Below, one piece after another: positions 3,004 through 30,637 of a stretch of DNA of 32,000 nt. The notes below the pieces were generated by a model. That model had not been told where the DNA came from and did no database searches. It saw nothing but the letters and a program-made list of their open reading frames with translations. The stretch's first letter is position 1; every line of letters begins with the position of its first letter. The DNA lies in assembly GCF_900232105.1 (NCBI RefSeq), contig NZ_LT934425.1:2040001-2072000 (forward strand). The letters run 5' to 3'. The stretch is from Candidatus Kuenenia stuttgartensis (GTDB taxonomy: Bacteria; Planctomycetota; Brocadiia; Brocadiales; Brocadiaceae). The position numbers were made by a program, and so were the translations under genes.

Positions 3004-3560
3004 TCCTCACTTCTCTGGTAATACCATAGCCTTGCCTTTGAATCTTTGTATATGGCCACACAGACATACCCTGGTCTGCGAAATGGATTCTCAAGTAACT
3101 GCACAGATTTTTTTGCGCATATTTCTTCAATGTCGCCGTTCTGCTGACCACTTACTTCAATCATTTCTTCTCTTTCTCCGATCCAATAGTCGGCTTTTTC
3201 TCCTCGACGAGTTACCTCCGTGATTTCTCGATTGACGTTCAAATGCAAGAGTATACAACTGAGGCCAAGAGTCGCGAACTCAGTGATAACTGGTTCTTGG
3301 TAGGTGTTAATGCATTTATTATAGTCATCTCTAAGTCCTGACCAATTTAAATTAACATCCGTCTCAGTAGCCTCTAAGGCTGATGACCGGTAACTATTTC
3401 GCAAAGTTTTATGCCCATCTGTATAACGTTCTGTTCCTAAGAGTCTTCTGACTAAAGGAGAACGAAAATCCTCTGCACGAATTCTCGGATGATGATTGTG
3501 CAGTTCGTTCACATTAACTACGTTGTTATTGTCAGGGTCTAAAACATTTCGTCGATTCAT
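3000..3560 (-). CDS. 186-aa hypothetical protein, translationally coupled to the helicase; weak PD-(D/E)xK-like pattern (E..ATLG..., KADYW, IEVSG) but the canonical Lys is absent
   Basis: ATG preceded by AAGGGAG. The stop overlaps the helicase start by 4 nt. The start abuts the stop of the 74-aa ORF. No family recognised by eye. Confidence 0.7.
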   Translation of the reverse strand: MNRRNVLDPDNNNVVNVNELHNHHPRIRAEDFRSPLVRRLLGTERYTDGHKTLRNSYRSSALEATETDVNLNWSGLRDDYNKCINTYQEPVITEFATLGLSCILLHLNVNREITEVTRRGEKADYWIGEREEMIEVSGQQNGDIEEICAKKSVQLLENPFRRPGYVCVAIYKDSKARLWYYQRSEE

Positions 3561-3932: not shown

Positions 3933-6900
3933 TCAATCCTCTACGTCCAGTTCTTTGCCCATACGGTATTTAATGTCGTAGTTGATGATGAAGTCTAATT
4001 CCTCATCGGTGAAACCGTAATGTTGGGCTAATACTTTGTCTATTTCGTCTATGATGGGTTTTGAGAGCCTTGGATAAAATTCTTGATAAGTAATGCTTCC
4101 TGTTTTTGCTGAGACCTTTTCCTTGAATTGACTATTATTTTTGTAGTCAACCATTAATTCATCACAAAGCTTCGAAAGCATTTTTAAATTCTCTGGTTTT
4201 AAATCAGCAACTGAAAATGGAAATTCTTTTAAGTCGCTTGGATTCAAATCTCTACAATTAGTTGTAAGAATAAAGTACCAATAAAATAGACTACTACTCA
4301 ATATTGAAATAATTGCCTTTTTATTAGACTCTGACTTAAAAAATAAATAATTTTCTCGACTTGAGATAGCTTTGACTCCATTCAAAATGAAATTAGGGCT
4401 AAAATCCGTAAATATTTTCCAATATCTACCGCCACCTATTCGATAGAAAATTTTATGTTGCCCTTCTCTTTGTAAATCAAAAGCTAATATTTTCCCCCTC
4501 TTCTTTAATTTTTTTAAAATATCATTCTCAATTTTGTAACCGATTTTAGGAATTACGTAATCTTTAGCCTGCAATGAATTTTCACTATAAATGAGTTTTT
4601 CGAACAAAATCGATCTCTCTTCGGACTTCCATTTTATAAAAAAAGTCGTATGGATTGATTCAAAGTTTTTCTTAGGTGAAATAATGAAAATTGTAAGCAA
4701 GACTTCTGCTCCAGTAAATAGTTTACTTGGACGTTCGGCAAAGTTGCTCAACCAAACTTCTTTTGAATCAAAAGACAGTTTTTGTATACACTCCATCCGT
4801 TGTGTACAAATAACACTTATTGGTACAATAAGGCTAAAATAACCTTTTTCGGAAATTATTCTTCTTGACCTTTCACAAACAAAGCCAAATAAGTTTCCGC
4901 ATTCCTGAACACTATAATTGTTTAGGGTGTAATCTTTTCTTACTTTTGAATACTCCACATACGGCGGATTGCCAATAACCACACCGAACCCGCCTTTTTC
5001 TTGTATGGTTTCATAAAATTCCGCAAACCAGTGGAAGGGTTGATGGCTGGCCTTCCATTTTTCAAGGTCCTTTGGTTTCCCCTCTATATCAATTTTATAG
5101 AGCTGCGCGAGATAGATATTTAACGTATCATTTAACTTTCTCAACCGCTCCTCTAAATCCTTCTTTGCGCCGCTCATTGCGGGACTGTCAATTATCACCT
5201 GTGAATTTTTAAAATTCTCGTACGCCATTTTTATCATTTCTGCCTGTTCTTTTATCGATTCGATTTCCTTCTTTGAGAAAAGACGGCCTTTTGCCTTTTC
5301 CACTTCTTCAAGTCTTGCAAAGCCCACAAGCGTATTGCCTGACCGGATATTGAAGTCAATATCAGGCAGCGGCTCTAATCCCAGATTCGGCTTTTTATAG
5401 TCCACGTCCACCGTTGCCACCAGTTTCAGGAATAACCTCAGCTTGGCAATTTCTACCGCCTCATGCATGATGTCAACGCCGTAGATGTTTTTTAAAATGA
5501 TGTTCTTATAAATGAAATATTGGAGACTGGGGTGTTCGAGTGATTTAACTGCCGCTAAGGTTTCCTGGAAGAATTTGTATTTTGACACACCCTTTTGCCC
5601 CTTATCAGGAGTAGAATTTTTGGCATCTGTCATAAATGCCTCCATACGCTGAATGCATGCCTCGTATAACGGTTCAAGGATGTTGATTGCGGCAAAAAGG
5701 AAAGCGCCTGAACCGCAGGTGGGGTCAAGTATGGATATGTTTGTTAAGGCTTTATAAAAGTGTCTGATTAATTCAGGATCATCAGTGCTTTCGATTACAT
5801 CCTGAGCAAATTGCCGGATGTTAAGGTTGTATGTGATAAGGTCGTTTATCTCGTGTATTTCACCGTTTTCAATCTTTTGCGTTGTCTCTGCATAACGTTT
5901 CCTTCGTTCAACCACCTCACGCCATATTTCAGTGGGAAGTCCATATTCCGGCGGGGTGGGTTTATTCCATGCTGTGCGTTTGGAAACGTCATTCAGTCCG
6001 GCAGCAATTTCAGATGGCAACGGTAATTGTGGTGGTAATGGTAGGGGCGAAGCATTCTCTGGTGTGTGCGATGGTTGTAGAGAATCGTTCCGCTGTTCTG
6101 CGGATAAATGTTGTGCGGGTTGTGACAGAGAATGCTTCGCCCCTACGGGAATAACGATGCCGTGTTTTACAGCATCATACAGGTATTTATCAGGTTCTGT
6201 TTGCAGGAATCTCCATATTTCGGCATCGGGGTTTAGCGCTTTGGGATAAGTTCTTTTTACCTCATCGAACAGGTAAGGGATTACGCAGTTTTTACTGATG
6301 TAGTCCGTAATGTCCTCTTTGGTATAATATGCCCCCATAGATGCCCGGTCGTTGATGTATTTTTCAAATATGTAACCAATTACATCGGGATTTATGTCTT
6401 TACCTGTGGCGGTAATGCGTGTATCCAGGTGCCATTCATACTGGTCAAAGAAGCTGAATACCTGCTCAAATGCCTCATCTGCTATCTCAATGTTGTCATA
6501 GTTTTGCTCTATGTGGTGAACATCAAACAAGCCGCCGTTGAGATACGGCACAATGCCGATTTCATTGGTGATCTCTGGCGTTCTTTCATACGAACCCAGT
6601 CCCTTATGGAAAAGGATGAGCAGGAAGTTTCTATAAAATGAGTAAAACCTATTCTTGCCCCTTTTCTCCTGTGTGGCTTTCAGCCTGTTTTTCAGGTAGT
6701 CTTTGTCATTATCTAAAAACCCTTTTTTCTGGATAAAGTAGATGAACATCAGGCGGTTCAGCATCAGGGATGCATACCAATCCTTATCTACATTTTCGCT
6801 GATGCCCTTGATGAAATCTAAAAATGAGGTGTGTTCTTTTTTGAACTGGTCGTAAAAACGCTTTGTAACTTTTTCGGCATTGGCGTTGAATTGCTCTTGT

Positions 6901-7364
6901 ATGAGGGATTTAACGTCCACGATGCGGATCTTTTCCTCATCATCTATGGAAAAGAAAAGGCCCTTGAGTTTCTGGAACAATAGTTCCGGTTCCTGATGTA
7001 TGTAGTAATGCGTCTCCCTTACAGCCAATGGTTTTCCTTGTTCACGGATTACCAGTTGCCAGATTTGGTGTTTTTGAGAAAGATCGCTAAAGATGATGAG
7101 GTGTTCAAAATAGAGTTTGGTAATGGCGCTGTCTATTTTTTTTCTGATGTGATAATCGGGCATCTTGCCATGATTACCTGGAAAGCAGGCAAAGATCACA
7201 AAGCCTTTTTTTTCTGCCACGGCCTCCAAATTGTACGTTTCGTTTTCAACGACTACAGATTCTTTTTTCCGTACATTGTCCCACCCCAGTTCATTAAAAA
7301 GCTCTTTGAATTGATAGTTTTTTATGAGATGTTTAAAACGTGTTTTGTCTATGGAGGTATTCAT
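3933..7364 (-). CDS. Large gamma-class N6-adenine DNA methyltransferase of the Eco57I / type IIG / PglX / DrmMI-like kind; no nuclease motif seen
   Basis: SAM motif I ILDPTCGSGAFL (nt 5726-5700), catalytic motif IV GNPPYVEY (GNPPY at nt 4973-4959). Also DIDFNIRSGNTLVG, and the WYASLMLNRLMFIYFIQKKGFL helix typical of this family. Long C-terminal region consistent with a target-recognition domain. Confidence 0.9.
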   Translation of the reverse strand: MNTSIDKTRFKHLIKNYQFKELFNELGWDNVRKKESVVVENETYNLEAVAEKKGFVIFACFPGNHGKMPDYHIRKKIDSAITKLYFEHLIIFSDLSQKHQIWQLVIREQGKPLAVRETHYYIHQEPELLFQKLKGLFFSIDDEEKIRIVDVKSLIQEQFNANAEKVTKRFYDQFKKEHTSFLDFIKGISENVDKDWYASLMLNRLMFIYFIQKKGFLDNDKDYLKNRLKATQEKRGKNRFYSFYRNFLLILFHKGLGSYERTPEITNEIGIVPYLNGGLFDVHHIEQNYDNIEIADEAFEQVFSFFDQYEWHLDTRITATGKDINPDVIGYIFEKYINDRASMGAYYTKEDITDYISKNCVIPYLFDEVKRTYPKALNPDAEIWRFLQTEPDKYLYDAVKHGIVIPVGAKHSLSQPAQHLSAEQRNDSLQPSHTPENASPLPLPPQLPLPSEIAAGLNDVSKRTAWNKPTPPEYGLPTEIWREVVERRKRYAETTQKIENGEIHEINDLITYNLNIRQFAQDVIESTDDPELIRHFYKALTNISILDPTCGSGAFLFAAINILEPLYEACIQRMEAFMTDAKNSTPDKGQKGVSKYKFFQETLAAVKSLEHPSLQYFIYKNIILKNIYGVDIMHEAVEIAKLRLFLKLVATVDVDYKKPNLGLEPLPDIDFNIRSGNTLVGFARLEEVEKAKGRLFSKKEIESIKEQAEMIKMAYENFKNSQVIIDSPAMSGAKKDLEERLRKLNDTLNIYLAQLYKIDIEGKPKDLEKWKASHQPFHWFAEFYETIQEKGGFGVVIGNPPYVEYSKVRKDYTLNNYSVQECGNLFGFVCERSRRIISEKGYFSLIVPISVICTQRMECIQKLSFDSKEVWLSNFAERPSKLFTGAEVLLTIFIISPKKNFESIHTTFFIKWKSEERSILFEKLIYSENSLQAKDYVIPKIGYKIENDILKKLKKRGKILAFDLQREGQHKIFYRIGGGRYWKIFTDFSPNFILNGVKAISSRENYLFFKSESNKKAIISILSSSLFYWYFILTTNCRDLNPSDLKEFPFSVADLKPENLKMLSKLCDELMVDYKNNSQFKEKVSAKTGSITYQEFYPRLSKPIIDEIDKVLAQHYGFTDEELDFIINYDIKYRMGKELDVED
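6041..6146. repeat. Palindromic repeat element inserted inside the methyltransferase CDS and read through in frame
   Basis: Perfect 20-bp arms GTAGGGGCGAAGCATTCTCT (6041-6060) and AGAGAATGCTTCGCCCCTAC (6127-6146). The termini match the intergenic GTAGGGGCGAAGCATTTGCC family. Encodes aa 407-441, VGAKHSLSQPAQHLSAEQRNDSLQPSHTPENASPL. Confidence 0.85.
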
Positions 7365-7397
7365 TTTCTTGATTTATTATAATTGCCGTATCTGGTA

Positions 7398-7508
7398 TAG
7401 GGGCGAAGCATTTGCCTGCGTATGGTTTAACTCGTTCAACAGAGTGGAGTCGGCGCGTGTACCGTATTTACATCCTTATCTTCTATGCAGGCAAATGCTT
7501 CGCCCCTA
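7398..7508. repeat. Palindromic element (22-bp perfect arms) filling the SNF2-methyltransferase intergenic gap
   Basis: TAGGGGCGAAGCATTTGCCTGC (7398-7419) is the exact reverse complement of 7487-7508. The right arm ends 4 nt from the SNF2 stop codon (7513-7515). Confidence 0.9.
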
Positions 7509-7512
7509 CGTT

Positions 7513-10500
7513 TTAGGGTTGTTTTTTAATTAGCCCTAAAGAACAAATAATTTGAGGTTCTTTGTATGTTTTTTCCTCTTCTTTTGTATTACATAATTTA
7601 TCTTCATCTCTCAGTGATACGACCAGGTTTGCCAGGTCTTCATCAGATATGCCCGCCTTTAACTGCCTGTTTAATGTTTCCCGTGCGAATTCTTTCAGCG
7701 GGAATTTATATATATCGTCTATAGCCCTTTTCATTGCATCATTTACAAACAGGGTACCTTTGTATTCCTCATAATGGCGGTTCAATCGCATATATGTTCT
7801 ATATCGGGCGCTTGATTTTTTGCCTAACTGGCCGCCAATGGTGCTCTCAACTTGTATGATATGCTCTATTCCTTTTTCCACCAGCTTGTGATGATTATCC
7901 AATTTAAATAATGGCGTTGTATCAGGATTGCATTCTGCCGCCCTTAGAATAACAAGTTGCGATTGTGTAATAATTTCACCCTTTCTGTCTACCCATATTA
8001 AAACATCATTGTCATCTGCCGTTCTTGTGTAAACAACAACCCCGTCATCTATTTTCTCATCTTCGTGTTTCAGTGATTTCGTGGCATAGATTACATGAGG
8101 CAAATCAGGGATTGTTTTTTTCAAGGTTGGGTCGGCATCGGTGGCATTTTTCCATATCTGATAAGCATAGGACGCCAAATCAACTTCTGTATCGTCTTCT
8201 TCATCGAGTATGCCCTGTTTTTCGTTATAAAAGTCGTGAATTCTAACCGGGTCACCGTCAAAAAATACCTCATCAGAACCAACCACCTCAGCGTTTTCCT
8301 TTATTCTCTTTCCAAGCCTGCCTCTTAATTTTATAATTTTTTCTATACCATCCTCAGGTAAAAATGAATAGCAGAGTATTTTGTCTGACTTCTGCCCGAT
8401 TCGGTCTACCCTTCCTGCCCTTTGAATAAGCCGGATTATAGCCCAGGGCAGATCATAATTGACGATGATATGTCCGTCCTGCAGGTTTTGACCTTCACTT
8501 AAGACATCGGTTGTTATTAAAACCCTTATCTCATCGCGGGCATTTGCGATTTCTTTTTTGTTATTGCTTACCGGGCTAAATCTATATGCAAACGTTGTAG
8601 GGTCTTCACTATCGCCCGTAACACATTCTATTTGATGTACGTTTCTCTTTTTCAATTCATCATGTAAGTAATATGCGGTATCTGAGAATTGTGTGAATAT
8701 CAAAAGTTTTCCTTTCGGATATTTATTTGCGCAAAGATCATATAATGCGTTTAATCGCCTGTCATCAGCGGGGTTCCAGTCCTTGCCTATCTTTAATATT
8801 TTTAGAATTTCTTTACTGTCATTGATTAATATATTTTTCAATGTATTTTCAAAGAAACCGCTTCTGATCCAGTCAAAACGGTTATGATAGTTGGTTTCAT
8901 ATAATGTATAAATCTTCTTAGCCTGTGCATAGTAACCCTCTTCATCAAGTAAAATCTTCATTGTGCCTTCGTTTGTGCCTGCATTATCGAAGTCAACATC
9001 ATCCAGAAATTCATCAAGCATATTTGCTTCCTGAGCGCCTATTGGGAGCAGCAGGTTGTTCTCTAATGCATAAACATAAATATAATTACGCAGAATATGG
9101 CGGCTTAATGATACCAGAAAAGAATAACCACTGCTTTCTAACCTTTTAAAGAGATTTGTCCTGCAAAAGCCCATGAGCCGCCTGCCTGCATGAGATAGAT
9201 TATCCTGTATAACTGTTTCTTCTTTTGTTGGTTTAAGGGTGGTCTTTTTATCAAGATAATTACCCAGTCCGTATCTCGGAAGATTTAGACTGTTAATGGT
9301 ATCTACAACTGTGTCAGAATATAATTTTGCATATTGGTCTTTCGGGTCGTTGTGGTTAAAATCGTATTCAACCTTTTTCGGTACCCTGTCGGGGAAATAG
9401 GAACGACTGCCGTCTGAAAACAGGAGATATTTCCTGCCGTTGACAGGGTCTGTTTCCGCATAATTCTGTTTAATAAAACTTCTTGGCCTTCTTACCATAT
9501 ATAACCGCATCAGTTCCCGCCAATCATCAGCGTAGGAGCTTTTTTCGAATGCGGGTAATGTTGTTGCAGAGTACTGATATTTAGCCATAAATTGAACCCT
9601 GCCGCCTATACTTTCGATAAACTTTTCGGGGCTGATACCTAAATCTTTATCTTCCTGAATAAAAAGGCGAAGTTGATTGGATAAATCAAGGTACGTTTTA
9701 TTATACGGTGTAGCAGAAATCATAATGACTTTGCTCTCGTTAATCTGGATGTATTCCTGAATAGCCCTGTATCGTTTGCCTTCCCTGTTTCTTAAATTAT
9801 GGCTCTCGTCAATGATGATTAATCGGTATCTTCTTAGTTTTGGCAGAACAGACTGGACTTGTGTAATGGGCAAGACCTTTGCCCGTAATTGGTATGTATG
9901 CGCGTAATCCTCCCACATGTTTGTCAGGTTTTTCGGGCAGATTATAAGCGTTTCGAGGAAAAAGTCTTCTTCGAATATCTTTGCCAAAGCCGTTGCTGTA
10001 AGGGTTTTCCCAAACCCAACAACATCGCCAATTAAAACGCCGTCTCTTTTGTTCAGGTAATGCGCGGCGATTGAAACAGCCTTTTGCTGGAAGCTATGTA
10101 ATTTCTCTTGAAGTATCTTTGGGATTTTAAATTCTGTTAACCCCGCACGCGCCTCACGGGATAAGTGGTAGGCAATTTTTAGATAGATGTGAAAAGGCGA
10201 AACCAATCTGTCAGCAGCCCAGCTATTATCAATTATCTCTGCTAATTCTCCGGATATATCTATGCACCATCTGTCATTCCATCTGTCTTCAAACCATTTT
10301 GTCAGCTTTAATGCTGCATCTTGTTCCAAAACGTCAACATTTAATTCACCCTGATGAAGCAGTCCGGCAAGGGTTAAATTGCTGCTGCCCAGGTAACCGA
10401 TAATGGGACTTATTTTGTCGTCTCTGAATAATAGGTATAATTTGGCGTGTAATGTGTGTCTTAGAAAAAGTTTAACAAGTACCTTTTTGTCTTTTATCTG

Positions 10501-10860
10501 TTGAGATAACCTTCTTAAACCAATCTCGTCTTCATCTGTGGGAATGCCAATGGTTAATTGATCTTTAAATTCCTGCGCTAATTTCTTCCTTATGGTGGAT
10601 GCCGTCTGATTGTCAATAATAGCATGTTCAGCTTTACAGAAATACTCCCGTATGATTTCAAGCGGAGGTTTTTGCATCCCTATGAGCAACCTGCAACAAT
10701 TCCCCTCATCCCCTTTTAAATTGTCTATATGAACTGCAACCTGTTTCCACCCTCTTAAATTGAAATAACCAACACAAAAGTCGCCCCTGTAAGACACCTC
10801 CAGGGTATTGTTTAATCCCTGAACTAAATGGTTTTCGATGTTATCAAATATTTTTGGCAA
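7513..10860 (-). CDS. Fusion protein: N-terminal phospholipase-D-family (single HKD) nuclease-like domain + SNF2-family (SF2) helicase/translocase
   Basis: HKD motif LHAKLYLL..x..GYLGSSNLT (H138-A-K140 = nt 10449-10441). SNF2 motifs GDVVGFGKT (GFGKT at nt 10017-10003), IIIDESHNLRN (DESH at nt 9810-9799), ISATPYNK. C-lobe has TDVLSEGQNLQ and QRAGRVDRIGQ. TTG start; the N-terminus is MPKIFDNIENHL. Confidence 0.9.
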   Translation of the reverse strand: MPKIFDNIENHLVQGLNNTLEVSYRGDFCVGYFNLRGWKQVAVHIDNLKGDEGNCCRLLIGMQKPPLEIIREYFCKAEHAIIDNQTASTIRKKLAQEFKDQLTIGIPTDEDEIGLRRLSQQIKDKKVLVKLFLRHTLHAKLYLLFRDDKISPIIGYLGSSNLTLAGLLHQGELNVDVLEQDAALKLTKWFEDRWNDRWCIDISGELAEIIDNSWAADRLVSPFHIYLKIAYHLSREARAGLTEFKIPKILQEKLHSFQQKAVSIAAHYLNKRDGVLIGDVVGFGKTLTATALAKIFEEDFFLETLIICPKNLTNMWEDYAHTYQLRAKVLPITQVQSVLPKLRRYRLIIIDESHNLRNREGKRYRAIQEYIQINESKVIMISATPYNKTYLDLSNQLRLFIQEDKDLGISPEKFIESIGGRVQFMAKYQYSATTLPAFEKSSYADDWRELMRLYMVRRPRSFIKQNYAETDPVNGRKYLLFSDGSRSYFPDRVPKKVEYDFNHNDPKDQYAKLYSDTVVDTINSLNLPRYGLGNYLDKKTTLKPTKEETVIQDNLSHAGRRLMGFCRTNLFKRLESSGYSFLVSLSRHILRNYIYVYALENNLLLPIGAQEANMLDEFLDDVDFDNAGTNEGTMKILLDEEGYYAQAKKIYTLYETNYHNRFDWIRSGFFENTLKNILINDSKEILKILKIGKDWNPADDRRLNALYDLCANKYPKGKLLIFTQFSDTAYYLHDELKKRNVHQIECVTGDSEDPTTFAYRFSPVSNNKKEIANARDEIRVLITTDVLSEGQNLQDGHIIVNYDLPWAIIRLIQRAGRVDRIGQKSDKILCYSFLPEDGIEKIIKLRGRLGKRIKENAEVVGSDEVFFDGDPVRIHDFYNEKQGILDEEDDTEVDLASYAYQIWKNATDADPTLKKTIPDLPHVIYATKSLKHEDEKIDDGVVVYTRTADDNDVLIWVDRKGEIITQSQLVILRAAECNPDTTPLFKLDNHHKLVEKGIEHIIQVESTIGGQLGKKSSARYRTYMRLNRHYEEYKGTLFVNDAMKRAIDDIYKFPLKEFARETLNRQLKAGISDEDLANLVVSLRDEDKLCNTKEEEKTYKEPQIICSLGLIKKQP

Positions 10861-10971: not shown

Positions 10972-11121
10972 GTAAGAGTGTAGTTTTTTGAAAAATTCCA
11001 ATAATAGCGATGTTTGCCTAATAGTGTAGGAGCGAAGCATTTGCCGTAAATTGTCATAAATGCCTTCATACCCAAACGGGCAAATGCTTCGACCCTACTT
11101 TTTCAAAAACTAAAGTGTTAC
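10972..11121. repeat. Nested composite repeat: outer TIRs (GTAAGAGTGTAGTTTTTTGAAAAA / TTTTTCAAAAACTAAAGTGTTAC) enclosing an inner GTAGGAGCGAAGCATTTGCC...GGGCAAATGCTTCGACCCTAC palindrome
   Basis: Inner arms are 11026-11045 and 11078-11098. The outer ends match elements at 29745-29886 and 30435-30556 and parts of 23116-23370 and 25562-26090. It lies directly upstream of the SNF2 gene, at the right edge of the island. Confidence 0.8.
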
Positions 11122-17014: not shown

Positions 17015-17070
17015 AGCGCGTGTACAACATTTTACGTCCTTATCTTCTATGCAGGCAAATGCTTCGCCCC
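17015..17070. repeat. Half copy (right arm plus interior) of the 7398-7508 palindromic element
   Basis: AGCGCGTGTAC..TCCTTATCTTCTATGCAGGCAAATGCTTCGCCCC matches 7453-7506. No left arm is present. Confidence 0.75.
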
Positions 17071-17304
17071 CCCCTGCCTGGATGTTTTCATTGTGTTTTT
17101 AAAAGGAATATGGTAAAAGTCCCTAATTATTAGTTATTTTATTATAATTTGCAAAAATAACTAAAAAAAATTTGCGTATGCGTATGAATCGGGTCAATGC
17201 CTCATCCCCTGAAACCAGGCTGACTATAAATAATTTCTGTTTACGCGTTCGTTTTTATAAAAGCAATGCGTAATCGCCTCAACCCTTTCTAAACACAATA
17301 AACC

Positions 17305-19467: not shown

Positions 19468-19812
19468 ACTCCTGCCTTCTTAATTGGTGCTGTTTTCATA
19501 GGGTACTTTTTCGGTTTTTTGAAAAAAGGCAATTAGTGAATATTTGTAACAATTTAGTTTTTTGAAAAAGGCATGAGATTTTGATGTTTTTATGAAAACG
19601 CATGAATAAACTTTTGATACGTGCTGGATTTTGTTAACATTTAAAGCAATTGAAAAAGGCATTTTGCTTTACCAGCGGTTCTTATATCAAAATAACGACC
19701 CACAGAAAGGTTGCATGGCGTTTTCCTGCAAAGGTATCATAAAAAGCATGGAAACATTCTTTCTCCGTTTTTTTAGGAGAGTAAATAGAAAACGGAAACG
19801 GGAAATAATAGG

Positions 19813-23115: not shown

Positions 23116-23370
23116 CTGGCATAACCGGAACCAAACAAGTACTAAATAAAAAATACGAGGCACGAGGCACGAAGCACGAAACAAATTCCAAAATACAAAA
23201 TCCCAATGAACAAAACCGTAACACTTTAGTTTTTTGAAAAACCGGGTTTTTAAATAGTTGAAATTTAGAATTTGTTTAGAATTTCGTATTTAGCTTTCGG
23301 GTTTCACCATTAAACATTTTGCCAAAAAGCACGCACTGACGAATGGAAGTGTGCAAAGAAATTACTGATA
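23116..23370. repeat. Left copy (L) of a ~255-bp mosaic repeat, inverted relative to 25562-26090
   Basis: The reverse complement of 23116-23370 aligns end to end with 25562-26090 once the MITE at 25675-25932 is removed. It has 3 rather than 4 copies of a 7-nt unit (CGTGCTT-like, about 23155-23177). Confidence 0.85.
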
Positions 23371-25561: not shown

Positions 25562-26090
25562 TTATCAGTAATCTCCTTGCACACTTCCATTCGTCAGTGC
25601 GTGTTTTTTGGCAAAATATTTAATAGTGAAACCCGAAAGCTAAATACGAAATTCTAAACAAATTCTAAATTTTAGTAACTATTCAGCGTAAACGATACAC
25701 GGCTCGTTCCCAAACTCCAGTTTGGGAATGCATTTGTTCGAGAAACTCCGGTTTCTCGCCTGTTTGCTGATAGATAGGGAATAAAATCACAGGGTTAAGA
25801 CAGTTTGTAATTCGTCAAGTCTGACACGCACTGGAAACAAAGTTTCCAGTGCAATTGTGTTCCCAAACTGTGGTTTGGTAACGAGTTGCGCTCTGATCTC
25901 CGGTAGTTTAATAAATTACGCTGAATAGTTACAAATTTTAACTATTTAAAAACCCGGTTTTTCAAAAAACTAAAGTGTTACGGTTTTGTTCATTGGGATT
26001 TTGTATTTTTGAATTTGTTTCGTGCTTCGTGCTTCGCGCTTCGTGTTTCGTATTTTTTATTTAGTACTTGTTTGGTCCTGGCTATGCCAG
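25562..26090. repeat. Right copy (R) of the mosaic repeat, interrupted by a MITE
   Basis: See 23116-23370. Contains 4 units of the 7-nt tandem (26021-26050) and ends in CTGGCTATGCCAG. Confidence 0.85.
25675..25932. mobile_element. 258-bp MITE with 17-bp perfect terminal inverted repeats GTAACTATTCAGCGTAA and an 8-bp target-site duplication AAATTTTA
   Basis: TIRs read directly. AAATTTTA occurs at 25667-25674 and 25933-25940. The uninterrupted paralogous site in repeat L (23259-23266, reverse complement AAATTTCA) is the empty site. No ORF inside. Confidence 0.9.
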
Positions 26091-29744: not shown

Positions 29745-29886
29745 GCAACGCCTCAGTTTTTTGAAAAAAACCATTAATAGCGATGTTTGCCGCAATAATG
29801 TAGAGGCGAAGCATTTGTTATAAATAAGTTCATACCCAAACGGGCAAATGCTTCGCCCCTACTTTTTCAAAAAACCAAATTGTTGC
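29745..29886. repeat. Nested composite repeat of the same architecture as 10972-11121
   Basis: Outer ends are GCAACGCCTCAGTTTTTTGAAAAA / TTTTTCAAAAAACCAAATTGTTGC. The inner palindrome is GTAGAGGCGAAGCATTTG (29800-29817) / GGCAAATGCTTCGCCCCTAC (29843-29862). The interior TAATAGCGATGTTTGCC is shared with 11003-11017. Confidence 0.8.
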
Positions 29887-30426: not shown

Positions 30427-30434
30427 AACAATCG

Positions 30435-30556
30435 TGACACTTTAGATTTTTGAAAAACGCAAGAACGCAAGAACGAGAGGCAAGGATGTCCGCCGTCCCT
30501 ATATCGGGCGGCAAACATCGTTAGTATTGGAATTTTTCAAAAGACTAAAGTGTTAC
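30435..30556. repeat. 122-bp member of the GTAACACTTTAG-TTTTTGAAAA TIR family with a different core (central hairpin CCGCC..GGCGG)
   Basis: Ends are GTGACACTTTAGATTTTTGAAAA / TTTTCAAAAGACTAAAGTGTTAC. The interior GGCAAACATCGTTAGTATTGGAATTTTTC is the reverse complement of the segment seen at 10989-11017. Confidence 0.75.
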
Positions 30557-30637
30557 GTATTTTCGGTTTTTTCCGGCAAAGAGCAAAATGATTCTTTGCC
30601 ATCAACTATTACCACTAAAGTTAAAAGGTTTGCAACT

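Follow-up and report, generated by a model that had tools for sequence, protein, structure and literature searches.

A palindrome of 106 bp lies inside the coding sequence of a DNA methyltransferase gene in a 32-kb stretch of the Candidatus Kuenenia stuttgartensis genome (contig NZ_LT934425.1, positions 2,040,001 to 2,072,000). This whole stretch is referred to as the window, and all element coordinates are window positions; L-numbers denote fetched loci and P-numbers homologous proteins. The palindrome is a repetitive extragenic palindrome (REP) of the kind linked to REP-associated tyrosine transposases (RAYTs), and it is translated as part of the methylase. The gene, its upstream partner and the parts of the element are laid out as follows.

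3933..7364, minus strand: host gene, encoding a PglX/BrxX-like, type-IIG-class N6-adenine DNA methyltransferase of 1143 amino acids with Eco57I/MmeI_Mtase domains
7513..10860, minus strand: upstream partner gene, encoding an HKD(PLD)-SNF2 helicase
6041..6146, minus strand: "double-foot" GTAG...CTAC REP/REPIN-type palindrome of 106 bp, whose in-frame translation covers residues 407-441 and leaves 1 nt over
6126..6146, minus strand: 5' arm (gene strand) GTAGGGGCGAAGCATTCTCTG, read as VGAKHSL and made of the GTAG foot, the conserved 16-nt core and a 5-nt lineage-specific stem extension
6041..6061, minus strand: 3' arm (gene strand) CAGAGAATGCTTCGCCCCTAC, read as (P)ENASPL
6021..6158, minus strand: whole extra loop relative to insertion-free homologues, residues 403-448, consisting of IVIP, the element and PLPPQLP

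The two arms are 21 nt each and complementary over 100% of their length, with a spacer of 64 nt between them, so the inverted termini described in an earlier, sequence-only reading of this DNA are indeed perfect but one nucleotide longer than the 20 nt it gave. The layout is GTAG-GGGCGAAGCATTCTCTG...CAGAGAATGCTTCGCCC-CTAC, and as RNA the element has a folding energy of -49.2 kcal/mol (z = -10.2 relative to dinucleotide shuffles). Read on the gene strand, its translation VGAKHSLSQPAQHLSAEQRNDSLQPSHTPENASPL starts with the first base of codon 407 and runs for 35 stop-free codons, as that reading had it, with 1 nt left over; no stop codon interrupts two of the three frames through the arms. Since 106 nt is 3n+1, the palindrome by itself does not keep the frame. 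The loop exceeds an 18-residue baseline by 42 residues, and what lies beyond the element is IVIP before it and the Pro/Leu-rich PLPPQLP after it. Two further statements of the sequence-only reading held up: the element lies upstream of the S-adenosylmethionine-binding motif I (DPTCGSGAF, at residue 547, with NPPY at 799), and the insert is rich in Pro, Ser and Gln (40% of its residues, compared with 12.5% elsewhere in the protein).

The host protein has the motif I, the NPPY motif and the full-length architecture of a gamma-class N6-adenine DNA methyltransferase, with motif I ahead of NPPY as is typical of that class, and this activity is predicted for it. Its Eco57I and MmeI_Mtase domains are Pfam matches. 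The PADLOC model REase_MTase_IIG (PDLC03628) scores 1051 bits in two stretches, of which the better one covers residues 448-1140 and therefore resumes directly beyond the insert. Sequence comparison with Protein Data Bank (PDB) chains gave no match, and a fold search was needed. The AlphaFold2 model, built from a 73-sequence alignment, has a mean predicted local distance difference test score (pLDDT) of 81.5 and a predicted template modelling score of 0.85, and Foldseek aligns the whole of it to BrxX/PglX of the bacteriophage exclusion (BREX) system (9ewz, 8c45; E = 1e-14 to 1e-13). The pairing of HKD-SNF2 helicase and methylase is found in every related locus for which DNA 5' of the methylase was recovered.

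The repeat family and its transposase

The window alone holds several relatives of the element. A search with the 16-mer GTAGGGGCGAAGCATT, allowing up to 3 mismatches, returned 10 matches against 0.22 expected, and these resolve into the copy in the methylase gene, 3 full intergenic hairpins, 1 truncated copy and 1 probable chance match (7007-7022, with 3 mismatches and no partner arm, which was rejected as a family copy). The sequence is thus repeated, dispersed and mostly extragenic, with 3 full and 1 truncated intergenic copies and 1 intragenic copy in 32 kb. The core that the arms were said to share with a dispersed family is confirmed both in the window and in many genomes, but the figure of at least five intergenic copies is reached only by counting arms; counted as elements, there are 3 complete copies and 1 truncated one.

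Beyond the window, a search with one genome per species found the exact 16-mer in at least 119 stretches from at least 8 phyla. The hosts include many genera of Cyanobacteria, as well as Chloroflexi, Brocadiaceae, Calditrichia, Armatimonadetes, Latescibacterota, Thermoanaerobaculia, Deltaproteobacteria and others. The fetched loci contain about 100 hairpins with the same core, mostly 69-75 nt long (72 nt in Brocadia). In a typical unit, a GTAG foot and the invariant core are followed by 3-4 stem pairs that covary, then by a variable loop and a mirror arm leading to CTAC. Across the family, stem positions 1-3 and 5-16 are paired in 89-100% of cases, and positions 17-20 form Watson-Crick pairs in 90/91/82/55% of cases, compared with 42/38/39/27% after shuffling, using 3-4 pair types. 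The hairpin is maintained by covariation outside the invariant core.

The same core has been catalogued before. Quentin et al. 2018 (PMC6006769) list in their Table S1, under subclass 2.4, the REP of the Anabaena cylindrica RAYT AFZ56567.1 as GTAGGGGCGAAGCATTGGCTCG…AATGCTTCGCCC / GTAGGGGCGAAGCATTGGCTCG...CGCCAATGCTTCGCCC, and the core GTAGGGGCGAAGCATT…AATGCTTCGCCC is identical to it. They also describe subclass-2.4 TnpA_REP proteins with "double foot" REPs, and REPs that lie in frame inside tnpA_REP genes, after the HuH motif and before the Y motif. The sequence is present in Table S1 and absent from the main texts of that paper and of Di Nocera 2013. A literature search with the arm sequence returned only unrelated primer matches, and in Rfam no family reached the gathering threshold over the whole window, with mere noise around the element.

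The link to a transposase is provided by the relatives of the window locus. In L003 and L130, a Y1/HUH gene lies just downstream of the orthologous methylase, with copies of the element flanking it, and the gene itself holds a 72-nt in-frame element directly past the HUH motif. RAYT genes with a REP inside and at their flanks also occur in a Chloroflexi locus, L025, and in L093. The four genes are listed here.

L003, 7676-8419: RAYT with in-frame REP at 7977-8048
L130, 6636-7406: RAYT with in-frame REP at 6937-7008
L025, 6484-7011: RAYT with in-frame REP at 6734-6802
L093, ~1050-1430: RAYT with in-frame REP

Most of the best 120 RAYT homologues carry RGEAF…NASPL, VGAKHS…NASPL or RGEAS…DASPL after PNHxH, because the palindrome arms are translated in two open frames. 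JGI gives homologues the name "REP element-mobilizing transposase RayT." The assignment rests on Pfam Y1_Tnp matches rather than on structure; the weak PDB match to E. coli TnpA_REP (4ER8; E = 0.32, with the HUH and Y regions aligned) is suggestive.

Other genes have taken up the same REP in frame as well. For example, it occurs in the gene for a LarC nickel-insertion protein in Microcoleaceae (L050 5725-5799) and in that for an nSTAND1 NTPase in Anaerolineales (L041 3658-3712). Copies within open frames of the GC-rich loci L014, L017, L020, L038 and L060 were left out of the counts because those frames are probably spurious. In L001, the TAG of a downstream REP's GTAG foot (REP 9495-9565) serves as the methylase stop codon (gene end 9498). 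As judged from its sequence and from the RAYT genes of related loci, the element in the window is a GTAG-tagged, double-foot long REP linked to subclass-2.4 TnpA_REP/RAYT. The comparison with Rickettsia palindromic elements (RPEs) drawn in the sequence-only reading is a fair analogy for palindromes in frame, but the element itself belongs with the RAYT-associated GTAG REPs and is not an RPE.

Origin and fate of the intragenic copy

The insert had been considered potentially unique to the window protein, and alignment with its homologues shows otherwise: the same element is present in a clade of orthologues that are 68-85% identical to the window methylase (L001, L002, L003, L124, L129, L130 and L131). 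The insertion site could be scored in 74 of the 120 best homologues. The commonest state there is an 18-residue loop, such as VELELPAEIAKGLDDVSK, and 13 of the 74 have the VGAKH…ENASPL insert, counting P0015, which is truncated and has the VGAKH half only. P0083 matched the search pattern through "GAKQ" and is not claimed as a copy. A similar "GAKQS" in the Ignavibacteriales orthologue L126 was considered as a REP remnant and set aside, its relative P0118/L128 having a different, longer insert and no palindrome.

At the DNA level, the element is 106 nt long in L001, L002, L003, L129, L130 and L131 and 112 nt long in L124, so that with the window copy 8 loci carry a homologous element at the same codon and in the same phase. 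The interiors align between orthologues and are 58-74% identical. In L129, which has the shortest form, the extra DNA is exactly 108 nt, made up of the 106-nt element and 2 nt; the PLPPQLP tail in the window is a later elaboration. The locus of P0015, L125 (gene 5001-8318), has a decayed derivative of the element, in which deletion of the right arm and of most of the interior has spared the left arm and the first part of the interior. This derivative is also the only case among the homologous methylases in which the protein segment occurs without the palindrome, a pattern that the sequence-only reading took as a sign against a repeat insertion. Since these copies have an unusual length in common and homologous interiors, while typical free copies measure 69-75 nt, one ancestral insertion is indicated rather than repeated hits. 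On the same two grounds, independent insertions into a hot spot in each lineage were rejected.

A single ancestral insertion of a RAYT-associated REP in the methylase clade, tolerated since as a disordered loop, is very probably the origin of the intragenic copy. One copy would have entered once, in the ancestor of a PglX/type-IIG-like methylase clade in anammox-type (Brocadiaceae-like) genomes, probably through a RAYT that cut and joined single-stranded DNA at the GTAG foot, on the model of E. coli TnpA_REP and IS200/IS605. The landing site would have been a length-variable, solvent-exposed linker between the N-terminal domain (to ~400) and the helical-methyltransferase module (from ~451). 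The element and 2 extra nt together would have made an insert of 108 nt, which could keep the frame and be translated as a disordered loop rich in Pro, Ser and Gln. The enzyme would have stayed functional, presumably with no effect of the loop on methylation, and the insert would have been inherited. Afterwards, the interior has drifted neutrally, and the arms have stayed nearly invariant and complementary.

It is this last contrast that leaves room for a different reading of why the palindrome persists. When orthologues are compared, 34-38 of the 38 nucleotides in the two 19-nt arms are identical, with conservation extending to the third-codon positions of the arms; in the flanking gene, 4-fold degenerate sites are 55-75% identical, which matches the interior. 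Some of the changes within the stem restore pairing. At position 17, five loci have C:G and two, L003 and L130, have T:A. Four loci are mismatched (C.A) at position 20; the window, L002 and L129 pair it as T:A, and L124 as C:G. L124 also has one G.T pair, and L129 shows the G/A variation at foot position 4 that is typical of the family. Such a record means that the arms are constrained at the nucleotide level or repeatedly corrected, and the possible causes include selection on the hairpin (as DNA or RNA), a continued interaction with RAYT and correction by template switching in quasi-palindromes.

Selection on the hairpin at this locus would make it a domesticated intragenic REP, either as a stem in the mRNA that tunes translation or stability of the methylase or as a site that is still bound or processed by RAYT. 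Along with the constancy of the arms and the pair-restoring changes at positions 17 and 20, such a role is favoured by the high stability of the RNA stem (-49 kcal/mol) and by the RAYT genes that adjoin the module in L003 and L130. However, the gene in L125 is conserved (dN/dS 0.09-0.18) without the right arm and most of the interior, which means that the gene can be kept with no hairpin in it, and most family members have no insert at all. Template switching in quasi-palindromes can restore pairing without selection, and the 16-nt core is conserved family-wide in every context, so its conservation need not mean a role here. A selected hairpin is for these reasons unlikely, and a regulatory role of the stem would be an extrapolation from its fold and conservation.

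The wider view, in which the arms are actively maintained in the reading frame by hairpin selection or RAYT action and the REP-RAYT pair spreads between phyla as a self-contained unit, is likewise a doubtful one. The arms have lasted while 25-45% of neutral sites changed, and on this view the element would be a domesticated structural or regulatory part of an HKD-SNF2/methylase defence module that in some loci adjoins a RAYT gene; the pair that spreads would have its REP embedded in the RAYT reading frame. Spread of that unit would explain an identical 16-nt core in at least 8 phyla, and in the literature REPs are species-specific. The distribution of the core suggests either horizontal spread of the REP-RAYT unit or an unusually strong constraint.

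The sequence-only reading had left two outcomes for the protein, a tolerated loop or an inactivating or modulating lesion of the modification enzyme, and the first of these is favoured. Comparison of the window gene with orthologues that carry the insert gives dN/dS values of 0.08-0.15 over residues 1-398 and 0.11-0.24 over residues 458-870 (dS ~0.35-0.9), rising to 0.5-0.8 within the insert. In the AlphaFold model, residues 407-445 have pLDDT values of 27-30 and no secondary structure, and their flanks reach about 90; mapped in this way, as the earlier reading had envisaged, the insert is a loop with pLDDT <50 between confident domains. Strong purifying selection, neutral drift of the interior and pLDDT below 50 point together to a tolerated loop and not to an inactivating lesion. 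Unrelated inserts of 5-40 residues at the same loop in several other homologues, including a second palindrome in L127, mark the loop as permissive. On the sequence and the model, the insert can be described as a translated, disordered surface excursion in a permissive linker, tolerated and with no sign of inactivation.

The palindrome in L127 (3001-6498; P0029) is unrelated to the REP. It is a strong palindrome, ACGGCAAATCCCCC...GGGGGATTTGCCGT, that lies in frame in the same loop (window residues 403-452) and is read as PPFEKVGSEN...KGDLGGF; the loop DNA as a whole, from one conserved flank to the other, has a folding energy of -78 kcal/mol.

A methyltransferase crippled by the insertion, a pseudogene in the making that leaves its nuclease/helicase partner unchecked, is very improbable. 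The insert is large, with 42 extra residues of a composition unlike the rest of the protein, and it sits ahead of the catalytic domain. Damaged alleles may also exist, as a near-identical public allele (P0001) has a separate 32-residue deletion by NPPY. Yet the reading frame is intact across 1143 codons with motifs I and IV present, the orthologues that share the element have been under purifying selection throughout the divergence given above, the insert lies in a disordered linker with well-predicted domains on either side, and other lineages accept insertions at the same site. The weakest alternative is a miniature inverted-repeat transposable element (MITE) or an RPE-type element (Rickettsia palindromic elements, Nezha), moved by a DDE transposase and marked by terminal inverted repeats and a target-site duplication; perfect terminal inverted repeats, a length of about 100 bp and an in-frame lifestyle like that of RPEs would suit it, but the termini are REP-typical GTAG/CTAC feet, no target-site duplication is seen at the copy in the methylase gene (flanks ccc / cat) and none is consistent over the ~100 other copies, the identical sequence is catalogued as a subclass-2.4 RAYT REP, the element sits inside and beside RAYT genes, and Di Nocera et al. 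2013 class the Rickettsia elements as CGTC-tagged where the tag here is GTAG/CTAC, so that such an origin is hardly credible.

Several points weigh against the reading of a single, tolerated REP insertion. The copy in the methylase gene is, at 106 nt, longer than the typical 69-75 nt, and no RAYT gene is present in the 32-kb window, the cognate transposase being seen in relatives only. Mobilisation by RAYT rests on published E. coli biochemistry. The insertion-free state was read from protein sequences only, with no empty site at the DNA level, and the low pLDDT of the loop is owed partly to gaps in the alignment.

Other repeats and genes at the locus

The intergenic relatives of the element in the window differ in length and setting, as follows.

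7397..7509: intergenic copy of 113 nt with 25-nt arms, between the helicase stop and the methylase start, 3 nt past the helicase stop codon
11026..11098: intergenic copy of 73 nt, followed by TTTTTCAAAAA
29800..29862: intergenic copy of 63 nt, nested within a second palindrome (29745-29886)
~17016..17073: truncated intergenic copy that corresponds to the right half of the 113-nt variant and lacks the left arm

In the window as in Brocadia loci, REPs often have the sequence TTTTTCAAAAA next to them. The window also has 5 copies of a second repeat family, TTTTTCAAAAAACTAAAGTGTTACG, where 0 are expected (19545-19569, 23217-23241, 25958-25982, 30433-30457 and 30533-30557). Between a PtsP-like gene and DUF2344 lies a large nested palindromic region (25660-25947) with arm pairs of 45 nt and 32 nt and small internal hairpins such as GTTCCCAAACTCCAGTTTGGGAA; no copy of this region was found in the fetched loci.

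The surroundings of the helicase-methylase pair have features of their own. A small DprA-like gene (PF02481, DNA_processg_A) lies a few genes downstream of the pair in L002, L003, L125-L128 and L130, and in L003 and L130 the RAYT is placed between the pair and this gene; among the window open reading frames tested, none has a DNA_processg_A Pfam match. The methylase ends in the peptide FT(D/N)EELDFIINYD(I/L)KYRMG (window 3951-4013), which in related loci also ends the neighbouring RAYT and several small open reading frames. It is found in L003 at 7454-7519 and at the RAYT C-terminus, in L124 at 3461-3526, 4573-4665 and 5253-5336, and in L002 at 10987-11052, and it looks like a shared tail module. 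The public allele P0001, from the Planctomycetia metagenome-assembled genome HS127, is 100% identical to the window methylase save for its 32-residue deletion, which falls right after NPPYVEYSK (residues 808-840, window ~4845-4943) and has short AAAAG repeats at its bounds. Damage to the allele, variation between strains or an error of assembly could each account for the deletion.

Significance and known systems

The methylase copy offers a clean, dated example of a RAYT-type REP absorbed into a protein, with one event, a permissive linker, a drifting interior and intact arms. For the defence module, the worry of a broken methylase is removed. There is also a warning for annotation, as protein stretches of the form "VGAKHS…NASPL" or "RGEAF…NASPL" are translated REPs. 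The conservation of the arms in a coding sequence, together with the cross-phylum core, can be used to ask whether REPs are kept by selection or by RAYT activity, and both also bear on exceptions to the rule of the species-specific REP.

Among known defence proteins, the host methylase is closest to BREX PglX/BrxX and the type IIG enzymes, with which it shares the full-length fold match, the PADLOC REase_MTase_IIG assignment and the gamma-class motif order. It differs in having an HKD-SNF2 helicase partner instead of BREX genes, in its REP-encoded loop and in finding no PDB match by sequence.

Palindromes in frame have been reported before. Di Nocera, De Gregorio and Rocco 2013 (PMC3733652) described GTAG REPs from genomes of Cyanobacteria, Chloroflexi and Planctomycetes as well as REPs within open reading frames, noted that GTAG often provides a TAG stop codon, and treated RPEs as Rickettsia-specific and CGTC-tagged. 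The present element shares with those intragenic GTAG and CGTC REPs and with RPEs the in-frame palindrome in a protein that is probably still functional, and the TAG stop has its parallel in L001. With RPEs, only the in-frame lifestyle is shared, the hosts here being Planctomycetia, Cyanobacteria, Chloroflexi and others. Their main text has no mention of a PglX-like methylase host or of this REP sequence. In-frame REPs in genes, RAYT genes included, are already published, and the methylase copy is a further instance.

REPINs, the hairpin-forming REP doublets described by Bertels and Rainey 2011 (PMC3116915), have in common with this family two invariant inverted 16-mers, a less conserved spacer, compensatory changes and association with a single RAYT. 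They were described as extragenic and largely lineage-specific. Here, the single arms are not REP hairpins and the unit has a smaller length; one of its copies is translated, and its core crosses phyla.

The nearest counterparts are the double-foot long GTAG REPs of subclass 2.4 (PMC6006769), which share the 5' GT[AG]G and 3' C[TC]AC feet, a GGG/CCC stem bottom, hairpins of ~70 nt and the core. The copy in the methylase gene differs from them in its length of 106 nt where 69-75 is usual, in its place in a defence-system methyltransferase of a Planctomycetia (anammox-type) genome, and in being an old, vertically shared insertion with conserved arms. The 16-nt core is moreover cross-phylum here, compared with a single genome in Table S1. 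Conserved arms in a coding region and identity of the core across phyla go beyond the textbook picture of REPs, and they are the part of this comparison most worth following.

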